Both the position numbers and the translations under genes were made by a program. From positions 1 to 5,432 of the IMG/VR virus record IMGVR_UViG_3300029561_000108: a DNA stretch of 5,432 nt; one strand, 5' to 3'. Numbering within the stretch: the stretch's first letter is position 1; every line of letters begins with the position of its first letter. This stretch comes from a virus. Shown one piece after another: positions 1-5,432 of the stretch. Below the pieces are notes generated by a model. It was not told the origin of the DNA. It ran no database searches and saw nothing but the letters and a program-made list of their open reading frames with translations.

Positions 1-96
1 TACCTGCATCAGTGACGCGAGACGGGGCAAGGTAGAGCGGAAAAGCTCACAACCATAACCAGACACTTGTAAAGAGTGCGGAGACTGTTTCGCGCC
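1..96. repeat. Terminal redundancy, copy A (identical to 5337-5432); circularisation overlap of a 5,336-bp circular genome
   Basis: Bases 1-96 (tacctgcatcagtgacgcgag...ctgtttcgcgcc) recur base-for-base at 5337-5432 and run to the last base of the window. An ORF reads through the implied junction. Confidence 0.97.
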
Positions 97-273
97 GTTG
101 TTGGGCTTATAGAAAAGTCCCGCAGGGGAATTGTAGGGGGAATTCTCACTTGCGTTAGAAGTCTGCGCAAAATGCAAGTCACACTGAGCAAGCGCATCTT
201 CAATTTTGGGGATAGAAATTGAACCATGCTCAAAAGCAAACGTGGCATAATCAAGTTTAACAACCGTTTTCAT
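1..273 (-). CDS. Rolling-circle replication initiator (Rep_trans-like), N-terminal segment; same gene as 4473-5432, joined across the circular junction
   Basis: The minus-strand frame is open from 309 down through base 1. It continues in frame into 5336->4473 once the redundancy is collapsed, giving 378 aa from ATG 273 or 387 aa from ATG 300. ATG 273 has GAAAGGTGG 10 nt upstream, matching the SD style of the other genes here. The N-terminus reads MKTVVKLDYATFAFEHG. Confidence 0.8.
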   Translation of the reverse strand, partial: MKTVVKLDYATFAFEHGSISIPKIEDALAQCDLHFAQTSNASENSPYNSPAGLFYKPNNGAKQSPHSLQVSGYGCELFRSTLPRLASLMQV

Positions 274-306
274 GTGAGAAAAACCACCTTTCATTTCCAT
301 GGTTAA

Positions 307-335
307 ATGTTAACACAATATGAAAGAGCTGTCAA
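307..335 (-). promoter_or_regulatory. Putative promoter for the rep operon (minus strand)
   Basis: The minus strand reads TTGACA (330-335), a 17-nt spacer, then TGtTAACAT (extended -10, hexamer at 307-312). The predicted start lies near 300, just upstream of the rep start codons. Confidence 0.55.
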
Positions 336-351
336 GAGGAAATTTCAAAAA

Positions 352-378
352 GGTGGGCGTATTACACGCACGCCCACC
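352..378. promoter_or_regulatory. Hairpin 1 of the GC-rich intergenic island (putative origin or packaging-signal element)
   Basis: GGTGGGCGT (352-360) and ACGCCCACC (370-378) form a perfect 9-bp stem with a 9-nt loop. The location is non-coding. Confidence 0.6.
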
Positions 379-439
379 GGCTCCCGCCGTCACGGCAGTC
401 TCTACGTATCGGAACCCCCTGCCAGTCTGTTTTGGAAGG

Positions 440-458
440 GCAAGGGCTTTGCCCTTGC
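440..458. promoter_or_regulatory. Hairpin 2 of the GC-rich intergenic island
   Basis: GCAAGGGC (440-447), TTT, GCCCTTGC (451-458) form a perfect 8-bp stem with a 3-nt loop. Confidence 0.6.
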
Positions 459-519
459 GGGGACGGGGGACGCGGTGGAGACGCTATCGCGTGACTAAAC
501 GTAGCAACTGCCTGCGAAA

Positions 520-533
520 TTTCTCCGGAGAAA
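520..533. promoter_or_regulatory. Perfect 14-bp palindrome TTTCTCCGGAGAAA (operator or Rep-site candidate)
   Basis: It is self-complementary over all 14 nt. It sits immediately upstream of the phased repeats and overlaps the 8-bp palindrome GAAATTTC (516-523), which also occurs at 339-346. Confidence 0.55.
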
Positions 534-581
534 AATAGAATTTCCTATTGACAAATAGAAGTTCCTATGCTACAATAGAAG
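534..581. repeat. Phased operator-like direct repeats: AATAGAAnTTCCTAT x2 plus a third AATAGAAG half-copy, period 20 bp
   Basis: AATAGAATTTCCTAT is at 534-548, AATAGAAGTTCCTAT at 554-568 and AATAGAAG at 574-581. Each full copy is an imperfect palindrome (ATAGAA / TTCCTAT). The array covers the -35, spacer and -10 of the plus-strand promoter. Confidence 0.8.
548..576 (+). promoter_or_regulatory. Near-consensus sigma70/sigmaA-type promoter for the 78-aa ORF
   Basis: TTGACA (548-553), a 17-nt spacer, then TGcTACAAT (extended -10, hexamer at 571-576). It is followed by SD AAGGAG (592-597) and ATG 606. Confidence 0.7.
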
Positions 582-605
582 CATAAAAGGAAAGGAGTTA
601 AGCCC

Positions 606-842
606 ATGAAAGTTAAATCAAAATTCCTCGAAAAGGTCTTTACGGAAAGAATCGTCTACACAAAAAACTATCAATACAGAGCAGTCAAGTACACCGCAGT
701 CAACGAAAAAGAAGAGTTTTACGACTTTTTTATCATCATGCGTATTGACATTAACGACGTTGATACAACGAGATATCTTGATGATATTTTCTGGGAGTTC
801 ATCGCACAGACAACAGACGGAAAAACATTCACGAGATTTTAA
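606..842 (+). CDS. Hypothetical 78-aa protein, divergently transcribed (positionally equivalent to inovirus regulators; no recognisable HTH)
   Basis: It has AAGGAG 8 nt upstream of the ATG, a dedicated consensus promoter and a strong terminator directly after the stop. It is the only plausible plus-strand gene. Confidence 0.75.
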   Translation: MKVKSKFLEKVFTERIVYTKNYQYRAVKYTAVNEKEEFYDFFIIMRIDINDVDTTRYLDDIFWEFIAQTTDGKTFTRF

Positions 843-852
843 AATAAAAAAA

Positions 853-894
853 CCTCCCCGACCATAACAGGCACGGGGAGGATTTTTTTTTTTT
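853..894. terminator. Bidirectional rho-independent terminator shared by the convergent 78-aa ORF and zot-like gene
   Basis: CCTCCCCG (853-860) pairs with CGGGGAGG (874-881) around a 13-nt loop. A 12-T run (883-894) follows on the plus strand. An A-rich tract (841-852) gives a U-tract on the minus strand. Confidence 0.85.
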
Positions 895-926
895 CAGCGG
901 CTATCGCCGCAACAAAACGAAGAGAA

Positions 927-1541
927 TTAACGCTTAGTGATAACCTGCTCTGTATCGTATTCTAATGCACTTACCTGCTTCACGGATTTGGGGATGGTAT
1001 ACCATCTTGCCCGCCCCGCCTTGCGTACCGTGTTGACCAGTTCTTGACCTCCCTCGGGGCGATGTTCCATAGCAATACATGAGCGATACGGAGTAAGGCG
1101 GCAGAACCAGCCAATGCGGTTGCAAAGGTAAATGCGATCACAAAGGTCACGTATCTTTTTATCAAAGTCCATGGTCTGAGACGATACAATAATCGTCAAA
1201 TGATATTTGCGCTGCATCTTGAAAAACTCGACAGCTTCACGGGGCATAGTTTTAAAATCACGATTAGAGTGCAGCACGCCAATTTCGTCAATGAGAATAA
1301 GGGAATCAGGAATAAAGGTCTGTTTCCAGTATTCCGGCTCTAACTCGTAACCAATACCCATATTGCTATAGATAAGCCCCTTATTAGCACGAAGCCACTT
1401 ATCAGCAACACGAGACATATACAGAGACTTCCCAGAACCTTTTGAACCAACAACAGCTTCAAGTCTGTAGGGGTTTTTGCAATAGTTATCGATATAAACA
1501 AAAAGCCAGCAAACGCAAAAGATAAGAATACCATAAAGCAT
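927..1541 (-). CDS. zot: Zot / pI-family filamentous-phage assembly ATPase (204 aa) with an N-terminal hydrophobic segment
   Basis: It has Walker A GSKGSGKS, Walker B LILIDEIG and the Zot-like block FFKMQRKYHLTIIVSSQTMDFDKKIRDL. GAAAGGA lies 8 nt upstream of the ATG. The N-terminus MLYGILIFCVCWLFVYI is hydrophobic. Confidence 0.9.
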   Translation of the reverse strand: MLYGILIFCVCWLFVYIDNYCKNPYRLEAVVGSKGSGKSLYMSRVADKWLRANKGLIYSNMGIGYELEPEYWKQTFIPDSLILIDEIGVLHSNRDFKTMPREAVEFFKMQRKYHLTIIVSSQTMDFDKKIRDLCDRIYLCNRIGWFCRLTPYRSCIAMEHRPEGGQELVNTVRKAGRARWYTIPKSVKQVSALEYDTEQVITKR

Positions 1542-1561
1542 AAATATAATCCTTTCTAAAC

Positions 1562-1605
1562 GAGAAAACGTCGCCGACCATAAAAATGGTCGGCGGCGTT
1601 TTCTC
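1562..1605. terminator. Long hairpin between the coat candidate and zot; probable attenuating terminator
   Basis: GAGAAAACGTCGCCGACCAT / AAAA / ATGGTCGGCGGCGTTTTCTC forms a 20-bp stem. The one non-Watson-Crick pair is T-G in plus sense and A-C in minus sense. In minus sense the stem is followed by a short U-tract (UUUUCUCGUUU). The position mirrors the terminator after gene VIII in Ff phages. Confidence 0.6.
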
Positions 1606-1612
1606 TCAATCG

Positions 1613-1741
1613 TTAGGAACGACCGGGAATCCAGCGGCGGAGGATACGGAGTACGATGCCCGCAATAGTGAGAATCACGAAGACAAGAAGAATGGGCTGA
1701 GATTCATAGAAATCAATGAGCTGACCCATCCAAGTGATCAT
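1613..1741 (-). CDS. Major coat protein candidate, 42 aa, Pf3-like (no leader); start uncertain
   Basis: Hand translation gives MITWMGQLIDFYESQPILLVFVILTIAGIVLRILRRWIPGRS. It has an acidic N-terminal part, a hydrophobic core of about 19 aa and a basic C-terminus with 4 Arg. A terminator hairpin follows. The frame stays open for 22 more codons upstream without an ATG. Confidence 0.55.
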   Translation of the reverse strand: MITWMGQLIDFYESQPILLVFVILTIAGIVLRILRRWIPGRS

Positions 1742-1841
1742 CGAGGTGAAGAACTCACCGACCAAAGAAAGCAGCGTGGCAAGAATAGAAGCAGAAGCGC
1801 CCTGAAGTCATCATCCTTTCATAAAATATTTATGGCACCTG

Positions 1842-1955
1842 TCACGGACGGAGCAGGAGAACCAACATAGAGAAAACAGCAGCGAAGATAATGAAATAGC
1901 CAATTTCGGGGACAGAAAAGATACCGAAACAGTACTGTAAAGGAAGAATTTCCAT
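1842..1955 (-). CDS. Small hydrophobic protein, 37 aa (pVII/pIX-like minor coat candidate)
   Basis: Hand translation gives MEILPLQYCFGIFSVPEIGYFIIFAAVFSMLVLLLRP. Its ATG overlaps the TGA of the upstream 204-aa ORF (TGATG coupling). Confidence 0.5.
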   Translation of the reverse strand: MEILPLQYCFGIFSVPEIGYFIIFAAVFSMLVLLLRP

Positions 1956-2569
1956 CAGCTCATGCGCCCCCAAATCGCGTTTTTAATCCAAGTAACAGTA
2001 GTAATAAAGACAAGGACAACAAGCAAAGCAGAAACGAGAGCCTGCGGGTTGAGGACCTGAGATGTAGTAGTGGAATCCTCCTCATAAGGAAGCTGAATAA
2101 GTTGAGTTGAACTGTTATAGGAATACCTTTCGGACGTATAACCGGACTTGTGCACCGTCTCAGTGCGTTCGATGAAAAACGTATCTCCGAACCAATCCAT
2201 AATAGCAGTGAAACTATTAGAGACAGCAGGGAGATTAGCATACAAAGCCGGAGTATCTGCGGCGCGGTCATCATAAGCGGTAAAACTCCCTTCAAAAGGC
2301 AATTCAACTTCCTCTGGTACATAGCCGTCGCGGAGGTCTGGAGATTCAGTGATATTCTGCGCGGGTTGCTCAGGAGCAGGAGAAGCTTCCGAGGGGGATT
2401 CAGCAGCGGCTTTAGCGTCCATATCAGCGACAGCCTGCGCGGATGCCTTGAGATAATCATACTGCTGCACGGTCATATCACAAGTACTACCATCTTTATA
2501 CTGCACTGTGTAGACGGTAACGCCGTCAGAATCAACCCAAGTTTTGATAATAGCAGGAACTTCCATCAT
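1955..2569 (-). CDS. Hypothetical 204-aa tail-anchored protein (no signal peptide, A/P/E/S-rich linker, C-terminal TM)
   Basis: It is a long ORF in operon orientation. Its start overlaps the upstream stop (TAATG). The C-terminus ALVSALLVVLVFITTVTWIKNAIWGRMS is a TM segment followed by basic residues. Confidence 0.85.
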   Translation of the reverse strand: MMEVPAIIKTWVDSDGVTVYTVQYKDGSTCDMTVQQYDYLKASAQAVADMDAKAAAESPSEASPAPEQPAQNITESPDLRDGYVPEEVELPFEGSFTAYDDRAADTPALYANLPAVSNSFTAIMDWFGDTFFIERTETVHKSGYTSERYSYNSSTQLIQLPYEEDSTTTSQVLNPQALVSALLVVLVFITTVTWIKNAIWGRMS

Positions 2570-2733
2570 TAATCACCCTCATTCCAAAGACTACGGAGAA
2601 CGAAACCAACAAGAGTAAGCAAAAAGAGTATAAGGACTAAGCCGCCATAAGTACCCAAGTGAAAAAACGGCATATTAAGTACTTTATAGACAAACGAAGT
2701 AACTACACCGAGAGTTGCAACAAAGTCTACCAT
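2569..2733 (-). CDS. Small membrane protein, 54 aa, two hydrophobic segments (pVI-like candidate)
   Basis: Hand translation gives MVDFVATLGVVTSFVYKVLNMPFFHLGTYGGLVLILFLLTLVGFVLRSLWNEGD. Its start overlaps the upstream stop (ATGGTAG) and its stop overlaps the downstream start. Confidence 0.5.
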   Translation of the reverse strand: MVDFVATLGVVTSFVYKVLNMPFFHLGTYGGLVLILFLLTLVGFVLRSLWNEGD

Positions 2734-2858
2734 GGCAACAAATCCTTTACAAATTTATATATCCCGAGACCAACGAGAAAAACGACAACAGTGATAACGA
2801 GTGTGCCACCGGAACCAAAAAGCCCGAAAACGGACTTAAAAAAGTCAATAAAACTCAT
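2727..2858 (-). CDS. Small hydrophobic protein, 43 aa (minor coat candidate)
   Basis: Hand translation gives MSFIDFFKSVFGLFGSGGTLVITVVVFLVGLGIYKFVKDLLPW. It has an ATGA overlap with the stop of the 390-aa ORF. Confidence 0.5.
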   Translation of the reverse strand: MSFIDFFKSVFGLFGSGGTLVITVVVFLVGLGIYKFVKDLLPW

Positions 2859-4027
2859 CCGTCAACCGCCTTTCTAATGAGCATTCGGAGAAAAACAGCA
2901 CCGAAGCAAAGGAGAGAAACAGAAAAAAGAAACGTGCCTAAATTCTGAAAAAGACCGCGAAGAAGAGAAGAAGCGCCCGCAGCAATAGAAGAATCGACGG
3001 AAGAAGAATTGTTCAACGAATTCAACACATCCTTAGAATCTTTCAGGGTATCAGAATCTATGTCAAATTCATCAGTAATAACTTTCTGCAAATCCTCTGG
3101 AGAATCGGAAAGCCAGGCACCAAGCTTAACGTCAGGCAAAAGAGAAGCAGGAACAAGGAGAGAAAAAGCGAAAGAAGCGGTAGTATCAAAGGCAGAAGCA
3201 GAATAAACAGGGGAGGAAGAAGGCTTTTGCACAAAAACAAAACCAATGTCAGAAGATGGAATAGTATATCCGGACGGATAAGGGACAAAAGAATGAGTTC
3301 CCAGAAGATAACGATTAGAATTGAGATTTATTTGCATCAAACTAGAATAAGCATTAGGAGGAACAATAAACGAAGAATCACCACCCTGCAAAACATAGCC
3401 ACTTGCGGAAGAAGAAGTAGATTCACGGAATGCAAAAGGATATGAATAAAAGGGGGAAGAAAAAGTGAAAGAATCTAAAGTATCAGTAGAAGAGCCAGAA
3501 GAAGAACCGGCAGTATTACCGAAAGAAAGAATACGGTCTGAACGGCTAAAAGAAGAAGTTAAAAAACCATAAGTTCCAGAGGGTTGAGAAGAAGTAGAAT
3601 AAACGCGGACAACAGAAGTTTGAGGGGAAAAGCCAAAACCAACAGGGAAAGAGGGAAGTTCAGACCAAAGACCAGAAGCACCGCGAAGAGGATAAGGAAA
3701 AGCGCAAGCATAATCATAAGCTAAGCCAGAATCGTTAGCTAAATAAGAAACATCAAACGCATCCGTAGAATAAGAAATAGAATACGGCAATGTATAAGAA
3801 GAACCAGAAACAGAAATAGGAGAGCAAAGAAGCTCAAAACAATCTATGCCGTGAGAAACAAGCTTACGCCAAACAAACCATGACCCATGATGACTATAGA
3901 AATCATCCAAAGATGGCATAACCATTTCCGTGTCAGAAGCAAAACAAGGAGTACACAAAGAAAGAGAAACCATCAGAGACGCGAAAAGGGCGACGAAGCG
4001 CTTAAATAAGTGCAGGTAATTTTTCAT
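2855..4027 (-). CDS. Ser-rich secreted protein with a C-terminal membrane anchor; pIII-like adsorption/minor coat candidate (390 aa from ATG 4027; GTG 4030 alternative)
   Basis: The N-terminal signal-like sequence is MKNYLHLFKRFVALFASLMVSLSLCTPCFA/SD. The C-terminus LGTFLFSVSLLCFGAVFLRMLIRKAVDG is a TM segment plus basic tail, as in pIII. GAAAGGTGGTGG lies 7 nt upstream of ATG 4027. This is the largest structural ORF. Confidence 0.85.
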   Translation of the reverse strand: MKNYLHLFKRFVALFASLMVSLSLCTPCFASDTEMVMPSLDDFYSHHGSWFVWRKLVSHGIDCFELLCSPISVSGSSYTLPYSISYSTDAFDVSYLANDSGLAYDYACAFPYPLRGASGLWSELPSFPVGFGFSPQTSVVRVYSTSSQPSGTYGFLTSSFSRSDRILSFGNTAGSSSGSSTDTLDSFTFSSPFYSYPFAFRESTSSSASGYVLQGGDSSFIVPPNAYSSLMQINLNSNRYLLGTHSFVPYPSGYTIPSSDIGFVFVQKPSSSPVYSASAFDTTASFAFSLLVPASLLPDVKLGAWLSDSPEDLQKVITDEFDIDSDTLKDSKDVLNSLNNSSSVDSSIAAGASSLLRGLFQNLGTFLFSVSLLCFGAVFLRMLIRKAVDG

Positions 4028-4077
4028 CACTTCGCCACCACCTTTCGAGACATCAAATAACGGAGGTCAATCCGCAA

Positions 4078-4151
4078 TGGTTGCGGGGTTAGGATTCGAA
4101 CCTACAGCTTCACGTTCAGAGCGTGACGTGCTACCATTGCACCACCCCGCC
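4078..4151 (-). tRNA. trnQ: tRNA-Gln, anticodon CUG, 74 nt, CCA encoded
   Basis: The reverse complement is GGCGGGG TG GTGC AATGGTA GCAC G TCACG CTCTGAA CGTGA AGCT GTAGG TTCGAAT CCTAA CCCCGCA A CCA. The acceptor stem has 6 bp plus G1xA72. The D stem is 4 bp with G18 G19. The anticodon stem is a perfect 5 bp with U33-CUG-A37. The T loop is TTCGAAT on a 4-bp stem plus G49xA65. Confidence 0.85.
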
Positions 4152-4155
4152 ATGT

Positions 4156-4175
4156 GAGAGCGGCGAACCGCTCTC
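4156..4175 (-). promoter_or_regulatory. Stable hairpin with a UUCG tetraloop, 4 nt upstream of the tRNA 5' end
   Basis: The minus-sense sequence GAGAGCGG-UUCG-CCGCUCUC forms a perfect 8-bp stem. No U-tract follows (ACAU, then the tRNA). Confidence 0.6.
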
Positions 4176-4211
4176 CCATAGGAAATGAAAATTAGGTTTG
4201 AACAAAGAAAG

Positions 4212-4454
4212 TTAGACTTCCTCAATTCCGAGAAGATATCCGTTGCGGTCAAAGTCGAGGTCATACGCAGCGCCAACGACAATGAGCGCATACGGCATCA
4301 TGCGAGCATCGACATTGATTCTATCAACCTGCACACCGTCATTGTCATCGTTTGCACGCATAGAATATTCGGCCATAAGAGTGGTAAAATCATAGTCTTT
4401 GCCCTGCTTGGAAGTGCCAGCGCGGCGGGACTTACCAACTACGGTAACTTTCAT
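4212..4454 (-). CDS. ssDNA-binding protein, gene V (G5P)-like, 80 aa
   Basis: It is directly downstream of rep, as in Ff phages, and of similar size (80 vs 87 aa). MKVTVVGKSRRAGTSKQGKDYDF resembles the M13 gVp stretch IKVEIKPSQAQFTTRSGVSRQGKPYSL. AAAGGATGG lies 7 nt upstream of the ATG. Confidence 0.7.
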   Translation of the reverse strand: MKVTVVGKSRRAGTSKQGKDYDFTTLMAEYSMRANDDNDGVQVDRINVDARMMPYALIVVGAAYDLDFDRNGYLLGIEEV

Positions 4455-4472
4455 AGAGTGACCATCCTTTCA

Positions 4473-5432
4473 TCAGAATAAAGATATATCATCAAACCCA
4501 TCTTCACTAAAGGGAGAAGGGTCATCAGCTACTTCGCGGAATTCCTCAACGGCAATGCGCGAAGATTCCGAGAATTGTGCGACTTCCTGCGTCAGTGCCA
4601 GAGGGGAGAACGGAAGGCGCTCATTATAGAACTGCTCCCACTTGCAACAAGCGAGGAAAAGAAGCTCAGGACGATAAAGCAGAATATCAATAATCCGGTG
4701 GCCGAAGACATTCGCAACATAGGACATTTTTTGTTCCTCGGTATGGATAGAAACAGAAAACTTTTGGGCAAGGTCATCACTAAGGGGATGCAATAAGTCC
4801 TTAGTGAACAGAATATTACGCGCTTCGAGGTCTGTCACGAATTCCATGTCATCCCAGCCATCAGGGAGAAGAGTTTCATTCCCGTACCGATTCCACACTT
4901 TACGGAGATAGGCGAAGAGCTTGTCATGGTCTTCGTAGTAAAACCAGAAAAGTGGAGACGGGTCATAGACGGAACGAGAACCAGAACGTACACGAGAAGT
5001 ATATTTCAATTCCATCTCGTAACGAATAATATAGGAATCATCAGGGCAGTCCAGAAACTCACCAGAAGACACACAGAGCTTTTTTTCAGGGTCTTGTAAG
5101 GACTTATTATAGATACGACAAAAGACCGCAGAAGACGTTCTACGACCAATATAGACGGTAGTAGAATCGCCATAGCCCTGATACATGAACTTGCGAACCT
5201 TACGGGCTTTTTCAGGGTAATTCATTTCATCGACAGAAGCAGAAATAACACCCAAATAGAACTCGCGCCACCGTTCTTTTGTCATAACAACATCGAAACA
5301 AAAATCAAGACGGGAAAAGTGACCGAATTCGTGACCTACCTGCATCAGTGACGCGAGACGGGGCAAGGTAGAGCGGAAAAGCTCACAACCATAACCAGAC
5401 ACTTGTAAAGAGTGCGGAGACTGTTTCGCGCC
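4473..5432 (-). CDS. Rolling-circle replication initiator (Rep_trans-like), main body; the N-terminus continues at 1-273 across the junction
   Basis: The frame is open to the window edge. The track start at 5402 is an internal GTG. The motifs FSRLDFCFDV and TTVYIGRRTSSAVFCRIYNK resemble the RxDxaxD and YiGsr...RiYdK blocks of the Rep_trans (pT181 RepC / phage Cri) family as I recall them. It ends with tandem stops TGA TGA. Confidence 0.8.
   Translation of the reverse strand, partial: GAKQSPHSLQVSGYGCELFRSTLPRLASLMQVGHEFGHFSRLDFCFDVVMTKERWREFYLGVISASVDEMNYPEKARKVRKFMYQGYGDSTTVYIGRRTSSAVFCRIYNKSLQDPEKKLCVSSGEFLDCPDDSYIIRYEMELKYTSRVRSGSRSVYDPSPLFWFYYEDHDKLFAYLRKVWNRYGNETLLPDGWDDMEFVTDLEARNILFTKDLLHPLSDDLAQKFSVSIHTEEQKMSYVANVFGHRIIDILLYRPELLFLACCKWEQFYNERLPFSPLALTQEVAQFSESSRIAVEEFREVADDPSPFSEDGFDDISLF
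5337..5432. repeat. Terminal redundancy, copy B (identical to 1-96)
   Basis: Exact 96-nt match to the window start. The offset of 5336 gives the unit genome length. Confidence 0.97.

Follow-up and report, generated by a model that had tools for sequence, protein, structure and literature searches.

What function is served by a short repeat that recurs three times, exactly 20 bp apart, in front of a single gene of a small phage? The question is raised by a 5,432-nt stretch of viral DNA (IMG/VR record IMGVR_UViG_3300029561_000108, positions 1 to 5,432; the whole stretch is called the window hereafter), in which AATAGAA occurs at 534–540, 554–560, and 574–580, within a 300-bp non-coding stretch that separates an open reading frame (ORF) of 78 amino acids from the divergent replication initiator (Rep) gene. 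Nearly all genes of the window are on the minus strand, and the 78-aa ORF (606–842) is the sole plus-strand gene. Bases 1–96 recur as an exact copy at 5337–5432 and, because of this exact terminal repeat, the window represents a circular genome of 5336 bp, which is, judged by its gene layout, that of a small filamentous phage (inovirus). The original prediction had offered two readings of the array, an operator and a recombinase attachment site. Our analysis leads us to favor, with moderate confidence, the reading that the array is the conserved promoter, with a built-in operator, of a mobile cassette and not a recombination site.

Conservation was measured as the mean major-allele frequency among 29 distinct window-type promoters (given as "frequency" below), and the comparison was extended to six lineages whose proteins are 38–55% identical. 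The elements of the region, with relatives designated by locus labels such as L015, are as follows.

503–533: upstream stretch, including the 14-bp palindrome; frequency 0.56.
520–533, no strand assigned: 14-bp perfect palindrome TTTCTCCGGAGAAA; not a conserved element.
534–540, plus strand: AATAGAA repeat 1, with its ATAG core at 535–538, at about −49 to −43 from the predicted start; frequency 0.94.
542–548, plus strand: first TTCCTAT, with its CTAT core at 545–548, abutting the −35 and forming the left arm of the dyad TTCCTAT-TGACAA-ATAGAA; frequency 0.97.
548–553, plus strand: −35 hexamer TTGACA; invariant in all six lineages.
554–560, plus strand: AATAGAA repeat 2, with its ATAG core at 555–558, inside the promoter spacer; frequency 1.00.
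561–564, plus strand: variable tetranucleotide (GTTC in the window) with at least 11 variants, serving as an internal measure of neutral change; frequency 0.76.
565–569, plus strand: CTATG, which includes the second inverted element's CTAT core and overlaps the −16 TATG (566–569) and the extended −10 TG (568–569); frequency 0.99 for CTAT (565–568) and 0.99–1.00 for the positions of CTATG.
571–576, plus strand: −10 hexamer TACAAT; frequency 0.98 for the −10 and AGAA together (571–580).
574–580, plus strand: AATAGAA repeat 3, comprising the −10 end and the AGAA discriminator; right arm of the dyad TTYCTAT-N6-ATAGAA.
541, 561–564, 570, and 581: positions between the motifs; frequency 0.62–0.83.
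582–584, plus strand: CAT, with the predicted transcription start A583, 7 nt past the −10; invariant.
591–597, plus strand: ribosome-binding site AAAGGAG, 8 nt before the ATG.
606–842, plus strand: 78-aa ORF, the cargo of the cassette; frequency 0.80 at third codon positions.

The three AATAGAA elements and their 20-bp spacing were confirmed, as was the near-consensus promoter that the array had been said to cover (TTGACA, 17 bp, TG, and TACAAT); the 15-nt imperfect palindromes are also present, the first of them pairing at 6 of 8 positions. The window contains seven copies of AATAGAA against 1.67 expected, and Tandem Repeats Finder (TRF), applied to the whole window, returned a single array at 533–581 with a period of 20, 2.5 copies, and 83% matches. 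Among 1000 genomes simulated by a first-order Markov model with matching dinucleotide composition, three (about 0.3%) had any 7-mer tripled at an equal period of 8–40 bp. A finer regularity lies beneath the repeats, in that ATAG (535, 555, and 575) alternates with its reverse complement CTAT (545 and 565) every 10 bp, and the resulting 44-bp pattern (535–578) has one perfect match, where none is expected by chance. The same letters form two TTYCTAT-N6-ATAGAA dyads, 20 bp apart, whose 6-bp centers are the −35 and −10 hexamers.

The promoter itself matches consensus at 11 of 12 hexamer positions and is the top promoter match in the window; near-consensus hexamers at the 16–18-bp spacing of sigma-A promoters are accompanied by a TGn/TRTG motif at 566–569, and the TRTG −16 motif is an established feature of Gram-positive promoters. 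By these sequence features, the array region is a sigma-A/sigma-70-type promoter of the Gram-positive kind and is predicted to be strong, with a start placed at A583 from the invariant CA. It resembles Gram-positive sigma-A promoters of the TRTG/extended −10 class (Bacillus subtilis Pveg type) in its hexamers, its spacer, and TATG-n-TACAAT, and also in its A/T-rich upstream tract, A/G-rich discriminator, and purine start after a pyrimidine. Unlike sigma-A promoters generally, it has the helically phased ATAG/CTAT set in and around the spacer.

In the 29 relatives, the alignment has no gaps from 534 to 584, and the phasing of the repeats is therefore fixed; the 20-bp phasing, which was proposed for checking in relatives, is kept above the neutral level. 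The motifs (0.94–1.00) are conserved beyond what a promoter needs when compared with the positions between them, and the 5′ untranslated region stands at 0.93. The upstream 14-bp palindrome is perfect, as described in the original prediction, and yet is conserved nowhere beyond the window and its 99% twin L015, in which alone TTTCTCCGGAGAAA was found; because it lies inside a hypervariable stretch, it is not a conserved element and does not count as a feature. In most relatives, this place is taken by a run of T and then a run of A, resembling an A/T-rich, UP-like tract upstream of a promoter.

The array repeats are also partly conserved in five further lineages, with ORFs 38–55% identical. 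Across the six lineages, the 37-nt core still has 26–33 identical positions, and TTGACAA, TA at about −18, TAnnAT, AGAA, and CA are invariant. The ATAGAA of repeat 3 is invariant in 6 of 6 lineages and AATAGAA 2 is kept or one base off in 5 of 6, and only the window-type and L038 lineages have the first unit in full; AATAGAA 1 is lost in L003, L041, L045, and L046, of which L003 and L046 keep the first TTCCTAT. TTYCTAT-N6-ATAGAA, corresponding to the alternative reading of the original prediction, is the symmetry found most widely, and the −10 dyad is perfect in microviruses L041 (GTTTCTAT-AGTATA-ATAGAAAC) and L003 (TTTCTATG-CTAT-CATAGAAA). The spacer palindrome ATAGAA-ATTT-CTAT shows paired substitutions (AAATTT, AATATT, and AGCGCT), although many variants break it. 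A motif search of all fetched loci and host flanks found matches at cassette promoters only.

To separate what belongs to this array from what belongs to promoters in general, viral contigs were scanned for TTGACAA-N16-TAnnATAGAAnCA, which gave at least 119 loci, and 108 distinct promoters were compared among the matches listed; the statements that follow on generic promoters refer to these. Most are on contigs of tailed-phage size with unrelated genes downstream, and they show promoter hallmarks that the search did not require, namely TG at −15/−14 in 26% and TATAAT in 64%. TAnnATAGAAnCA is a common ending of unrelated phage promoters, and since this frame recurs there, the third AATAGAA would be an ordinary −10, discriminator, and start. 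ATAG at the position of repeat 2 (spacer positions 8–11) was found in only 2 of the 108, and CTAT or ATAG at spacer positions 18–21 in 5. Because the spacer and upstream elements are so rare in the generic promoters listed, they appear to be under an extra, cassette-specific constraint, which is the main argument for an operator. A few unrelated phage promoters carrying three ATAG at about 10-bp spacing from the −35 to the start were also observed (L094 at 3783–3818, L067, L110, L111, and L158), an example being TTGACAAATAGCAAACAATAGTATATAATAGAATCA; the similarity may be due to chance or to a regulator in common.

The distribution of the array is that of its cassette. Judged from presence and absence among relatives, the promoter, the short leader, and the 78-aa ORF are a mobile accessory-gene cassette. 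The close relatives MT135305 and MT135292 have neither promoter nor ORF, and in them the conserved GC-rich hairpin segment (window ~400–500) runs directly into the terminator of the Zot-like gene; the array is entirely absent from backbone relatives with a Zot-like protein 95% identical. A homologous promoter with a 38%-identical small ORF was found in an intergenic position of OP549876 ("Microvirus sp.", human sample). The cassette is carried by inoviruses of the window type, which combine it with three or more different Rep modules, by the sister inovirus lineage L038/L039, by the inovirus L046/L047, whose initiator is of the Rep_OBD type and which has an HTH_3 gene, and by three gokushovirus-like microvirus lineages (L040, L041–L044, and L045), and its ORF is antisense to the other phage genes in every carrier recovered. 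The 196 close homologues of the 78-aa ORF are on contigs of about 5 kb, none above 12 kb; the family is small, since at 50% identity a set of 1.8 billion representatives contains only some six genuine clusters, and neither a homologue nor a prophage copy of the cassette was found in 185,579 species-representative genomes.

A comparison of window 300–500 with L004–L037 showed the same hairpin-plus-cassette module joined to at least three unrelated Rep/promoter modules, which suggests that modules are often exchanged by recombination in the non-coding region. In L048, the stretch from the hairpin region to the Zot terminator is occupied by a different antisense cassette (1866–2213, minus strand) with a 115-aa ORF and its own extended −10 promoter, and in L038 the 78-aa homologue is followed by an additional 90-aa gene; this position seems to be a hot spot for accessory genes in antisense orientation. 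The cassette resembles filamentous-phage morons and divergent regulators such as rstR of CTX-phi in being a self-contained promoter and ORF, in lying antisense in the non-coding control region near the origin and attachment site, in being present or absent among close relatives, and in using the adjacent backbone terminator. Unlike rstR, its product is no helix-turn-helix (HTH) repressor, and the cassette is common to two unrelated phage families with single-stranded DNA (ssDNA).

The favored mechanism is as follows. Five ATAG/CTAT half-sites, one helical turn apart and superimposed on the promoter over the region contacted by RNA polymerase, place the dyads on the same DNA face, and a dimeric DNA-binding protein, possibly as two cooperating dimers, would bind them. 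The dyad-bound protein would compete with RNA polymerase and thereby throttle an otherwise very strong promoter. The parts of the array specific to the cassette would be its first unit, AATAGAA repeat 2, and the CTAT cores, with the third AATAGAA being mostly ordinary promoter. The 78-aa protein, the only candidate encoded by the cassette, may act as an autorepressor; a host or resident-prophage regulator would be an equally possible binder. In its arrangement, the array is like the operators of P22 Arc/Mnt at Pant, of CopG, of the omega heptads, and of tet, to which small dimeric repressors bind cooperatively and which likewise have short half-sites at integral helical turns, with repeats spanning the −35, spacer, and −10 with dyad symmetry in the window; orientation flips are tolerated in the omega heptads as in the cassette relatives. 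Unlike the Arc, CopG, and omega systems, the window encodes no ribbon-helix-helix (RHH) or HTH protein, and its candidate half-site core is 4–7 bp. The P22 Arc operator contains ATAGAAGCAC, which offers a tentative parallel to ATAGAAGCAT at 575–584 of the window.

Several observations weigh against an operator of this kind. The 78-aa protein has a net charge of about 0 by residue count, and its model matches no DNA-binding fold; no HTH or RHH domain was recognized among the window proteins searched. Ordinary promoter features (TRTG, discriminator, and UP-like tract) overlap parts of the array. The L040 and L045 microviruses carry ATAG in direct, not inverted, orientation at the second position, L041 is without the −35 dyad, so that the dyad architecture is not universal, and the outer three bases of the TTYCTAT arm vary. 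The promoter is, furthermore, far more conserved than the ORF, as in L038 (33 of 37 core positions against 45% protein identity), and a tight promoter over a divergent ORF is awkward if the 78-aa product reads the array. Over L038 764–835 and window 534–605, 13 of 14 upstream positions are also identical, and this pattern suggests diversifying selection on the protein or recombination within the cassette.

The 78-aa protein gives little indication of its role. Its structural model is confident (predicted local distance difference test, pLDDT, 94.6) and shows a helix packed on an antiparallel sheet, for which Foldseek returned no match in PDB or BFVD at E < 0.1; Pfam, PHROGs, NCBIfam, PADLOC, and PDB sequences gave no significant match, the sole family match being weak and sub-threshold, to DUF7661. 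The most conserved segment is the N-terminal MKxKxxFLxKV. Autoregulation by this protein is possible but unsupported. The HTH_3 repressor of L046 was considered as the binder and rejected, its own divergent promoter having repeats of the TGTAAA/TTTACA and TGTAGC types and not ATAG, and an informal by-eye comparison with the boxes of the Firmicute regulators CodY, CcpA, Spo0A, SinR, LexA, ArgR, Fur, and Rex gave no convincing match. In the operator reading of the original prediction, the conservation and phasing of the repeats and the cassette specificity of the spacer motifs hold up, and no binder was found among the phage proteins examined.

The lack of a repressor candidate is in keeping with a rival possibility, which we hold to be clearly less probable than the promoter-operator: that the array is a promoter only, with no dedicated regulator, its repeats being the legacy of a 20-bp tandem duplication. 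RNA polymerase itself would then keep the repeats through the UP-like tract, through spacer shape or curvature (phased TA steps), and through TRTG and the AGAA discriminator with G at −5. This possibility is helped by the overlap of much of the array with known promoter elements, including the common TAnnATAGAAnCA ending, by the TRF reading of 2.5 copies of a 20-bp unit, by the flip of the middle element from CTAT to ATAG in the same phase in L040 and L045, and by the unrelated promoters L094, L067, and L110, which also have ATAG three times at about 10 bp. However, the spacers of the generic promoters listed are essentially random at the two sites (2 and 5 of 108), whereas both spacer motifs are kept across lineages that are saturated for neutral change; the −10 dyad is perfect in two distant lineages, and paired changes preserve the spacer palindrome. 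These observations incline us to the promoter with an embedded operator.

An improbable alternative is that the array acts on ssDNA, with dyad hairpins or pairing with the Rep promoter allowing the host RNA polymerase to transcribe or prime ahead of complementary-strand synthesis, in a manner like the Frpo or single-strand initiation (ssi) promoters of plasmid leading regions. Frpo provides a precedent (PMC11541004; PMC9849209). The antisense orientation, common to all lineages recovered, makes the incoming viral strand the template of the cassette. The array strand forms local folds of greater stability than shuffled sequences do (z −2.5 to −3.2), the −10 dyad forms an 8–9-bp hairpin in microvirus ssDNA, and the minimum-energy fold of the window pairs the −35 of the ORF promoter with the −35 region of the Rep promoter (z −5.6). 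However, no computed fold rebuilds the duplex −35 plus −10; the microviruses form short local hairpins only, with the −10 left in the loop; relatives with other Reps have, within the upstream 330 nt, no Rep-promoter segment fully complementary to the −35, a comparison for which folds were not computed; the arm sequences are conserved and do not covary; and antisense placement is usual anyway for accessory and repressor genes of filamentous phages. It is thus hardly likely that the cassette is an "immediate-early" gene of ssDNA phages, with a dyad-rich promoter acting on the folded viral strand. If it were, a fast-evolving host-interaction protein (e.g., an anti-defense or exclusion factor) would be made before the replicative form exists, the array would in addition or instead prime complementary-strand synthesis, and the module would have passed horizontally between Inoviridae-like phages and Microviridae of gut Clostridia.

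The recombination reading, according to which the array is an XerCD-type or other tyrosine-recombinase site (a phage attachment site, attP, or an FRT-like site) of an integrase-less phage, is very improbable. It has some points in its favor: TTCCTAT-N6-ATAGAA has the arm-6 bp-arm geometry, the annotated proteins of the window genome include no integrase, as the original prediction had it, related ssDNA phages integrate at host dif-like sites, and the identity to an arm of FRT was confirmed. Against it, the array matches five dif sequences (the dif of B. subtilis, Staphylococcus aureus, and Escherichia coli and the two sites flanking a cassette-bearing microvirus prophage) at 12–13 of 22 arm positions, no better than shuffles, which average about 14. 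When every 28-mer of the window genome was compared with the same five sequences, the best matched 13–14 of 22 and none exceeded shuffles. The B. subtilis dif had been given correctly in the original prediction, and the string used is that of PMC3025954. Prophage junctions, which the attP proposal would place inside the array, map to separate dif-like sites of 28 bp (ATTGAACAAAA-N6-TTTTGTTYAAT); the "spacers" within the dyads coincide with the two promoter hexamers; and all 78-aa homologues are on contigs of at most 12 kb, with none in the 185,579 species genomes. As for FRT, the arm had been given correctly and 11 nt are identical, and this identity is isolate-specific, the 11-mer GAAGTTCCTAT being at the promoter only in the window and L015. 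An FRT/Flp site was rejected: one arm only is present, at 11 of 13, the spacers are 6 bp and not 8, and there is no recombinase gene.

The use of host Xer-type recombination by integrase-less phages, the idea behind the attP proposal of the original prediction, fits this phage group, at sites other than the array and not in the window sequence. The dif-like sites of related phages are 170–400 bp from the array or in phages without it. L041–L044 represent a microvirus integrated as a prophage, flanked by ATTGAACAAAATAAGCATTTTGTTTAAT and ATTGAACAAAATAAAAATTTTGTTCAAT, with bacterial radA beyond the right end and the left junction (attL) about 400 bp upstream of the cassette promoter. The array-less inovirus L048, whose Zot-like protein is 83% identical to that of the window, is integrated at the same chromosomal site, with a radA flank 86% identical to that of the microvirus prophage and the same 28-mer. 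In the window-type genomes L004, L016, and L021, GTCGAACAAAATCATAGTTTTGTCCAAC is about 190 bp upstream of the array, and the coexistence of both in these genomes makes the array and the dif-like site separate entities. The sites are as follows.

L041 5140–5167; L042 63–90 and 5390–5417; L044 219–246: 28-bp sites ATTGAACAAAA-N6-TTTTGTTCAAT.
L048 2815–2843 and 2895–2922: two 28-bp sites ATTGAACAAAA-N6-TTTTGTTCAAT, 52 bp apart.
L004 4302–4329; L016 2094–2121; L021 894–921: dif-like attP candidates GTCGAACAAAATCATAGTTTTGTCCAAC.

A similar dif-like site is present downstream of the cassette in L046 (~5148–5176), with TTTAAACAAAATGACGGTTTTGTATAAA just after the cassette. Some array-bearing relatives with an attP candidate have a different Rep module and TGTAGA/TCTACA-type repeats, and the window has a GC hairpin/terminator where some relatives carry the candidate. 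A relaxed core search of the window for a dif-like site gave one 3-mismatch match, CAACATAGGACATTTTTTGTTC (4715–4736, plus strand), inside the Rep gene; a match as good arises in 5% of shuffles, and this one is probably due to chance. Among the homologues and species genomes searched, no array-bearing inovirus was found integrated. The host site beside radA has perfectly palindromic arms and is a candidate chromosomal dif, and a radA-adjacent position is an unusual place for dif. L048 and L041–L044 share this 28-bp 11-6-11 site, and L004-type genomes carry a matching attP-like site, as in integrative mobile elements exploiting Xer (IMEX; CTX-phi and VGJ-phi types and gokushovirus prophages at dif); unlike the attachment sites of IMEX, the array has no 11-6-11 site, and the window is without such a site above chance. 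Among ssDNA phages that have no integrase, both filamentous phages and microviruses are known to integrate at dif (PMC3091885; PMC7062461).

Finally, the idea that the repeats are iterons bound by the phage Rep at a replication origin, which about 20-bp direct repeats in an intergenic position beside the Rep gene and a strongly structured GC-rich segment might suggest, is excluded because the same array accompanies at least four unrelated Rep types (Rep_trans-like, Rep_OBD, microvirus REP_ORF2-G2P, and at least two others), relatives with the same structural backbone are without the array, and rolling-circle Reps of these types introduce their nick at a hairpin and are not known to use iterons.

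The nearest GenBank records to the window are "Inovirus sp." genomes from pigs, with about 86% identity across the structural genes. The features outside the cassette are listed below.

~272 through 1/5336 to 4473, minus strand: Rep_trans-like replication initiator, wrapping across the window ends.
307–344, minus strand: divergent Rep promoter, with TTGACA at 335–330, TGTG (−16 motif), and TAACAT at 312–307.
846–894: bidirectional terminator (A-run, stem CCTCCCCG / CGGGGAGG, T-run), common to the 78-aa ORF and the convergent Zot-like gene.
927–1541, minus strand: Zot-like assembly ATPase.
4078–4151, minus strand: full-length tRNA-Gln(CUG).
Minus strand: 80-aa protein, weakly matching the RstB family (PHROGs, E 6.5e-4), where a gene for an ssDNA-binding protein is expected.
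Remaining window genes: a 391-aa protein and several small hydrophobic proteins.

Judged by its equivalent in the cassette-less relatives L001 and L002, the terminator is part of the backbone. The −35 of the Rep promoter is preceded by TTCCTCT, which resembles the first TTCCTAT of the array, and the upstream AATTTCCTCTTGACA mirrors 539–553. AATTTCCTnTTGACA is common to the Rep and ORF promoters in mirror orientation (330–344 and 539–553, 93% complementary), and L048 carries GATTCCTCTTGACA at the position corresponding to the mirrored segment; AATTTCCTnTTGACA may act as an upstream determinant of both promoters or as a binding site. Immediately before the cassette, the window has a small hairpin at 478–494, GACGCTATCGCGTGAC, with a TATC loop (ACGC-TATC-GCGT), and microvirus L041 has similar hairpins (CGGC-TATC-GCCG and CATGC-TATC-GCATG; ~75–100 and 140–160) upstream of its cassette. 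The viral-strand reading of the hairpin at 478–494 is TAGCGT, which we take to be the CS-6 motif of ssoA-type single-strand origins, and the TATC-loop hairpin may be a complementary-strand origin element common to both phage families. The tRNA-Gln(CUG) is kept in nearly all inovirus relatives examined, including L046 with its different Rep, and L049 has tRNA-Gln(UUG) instead.

The promoter type, the genes flanking L048, and the Clostridia relatives of the Zot-like protein together point to gut spore-forming Firmicutes as the host. The neighbors of L048 include genes for CotJA, CotJB, and an Mn-catalase (cotJC-like), and distant Zot relatives are on Clostridia contigs. The L048 contig, CAVDWO010000002.1, is labelled Alistipes onderdonkii, which is probably a binning error, with a Firmicute contig mis-binned into a Bacteroidota genome. 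The integration of an inovirus and a microvirus at one and the same chromosomal position in spore-forming Firmicutes provides information on host and lifestyle for phages available from metagenomes only.

As a promoter-operator, the array would be an ordinary kind of element, and its setting is the informative part. The region offers a compact, probably very strong Gram-positive promoter with a candidate operator, which could be useful if the regulator is found. A tight promoter over a looser cargo suggests that the cassette supplies a protein under diversifying pressure from a fixed, strong, and probably regulated promoter. More broadly, two unrelated families of gut ssDNA phages exchange a compact, self-contained expression cassette, and cross-family exchange of such cassettes has, to our knowledge, rarely been documented.

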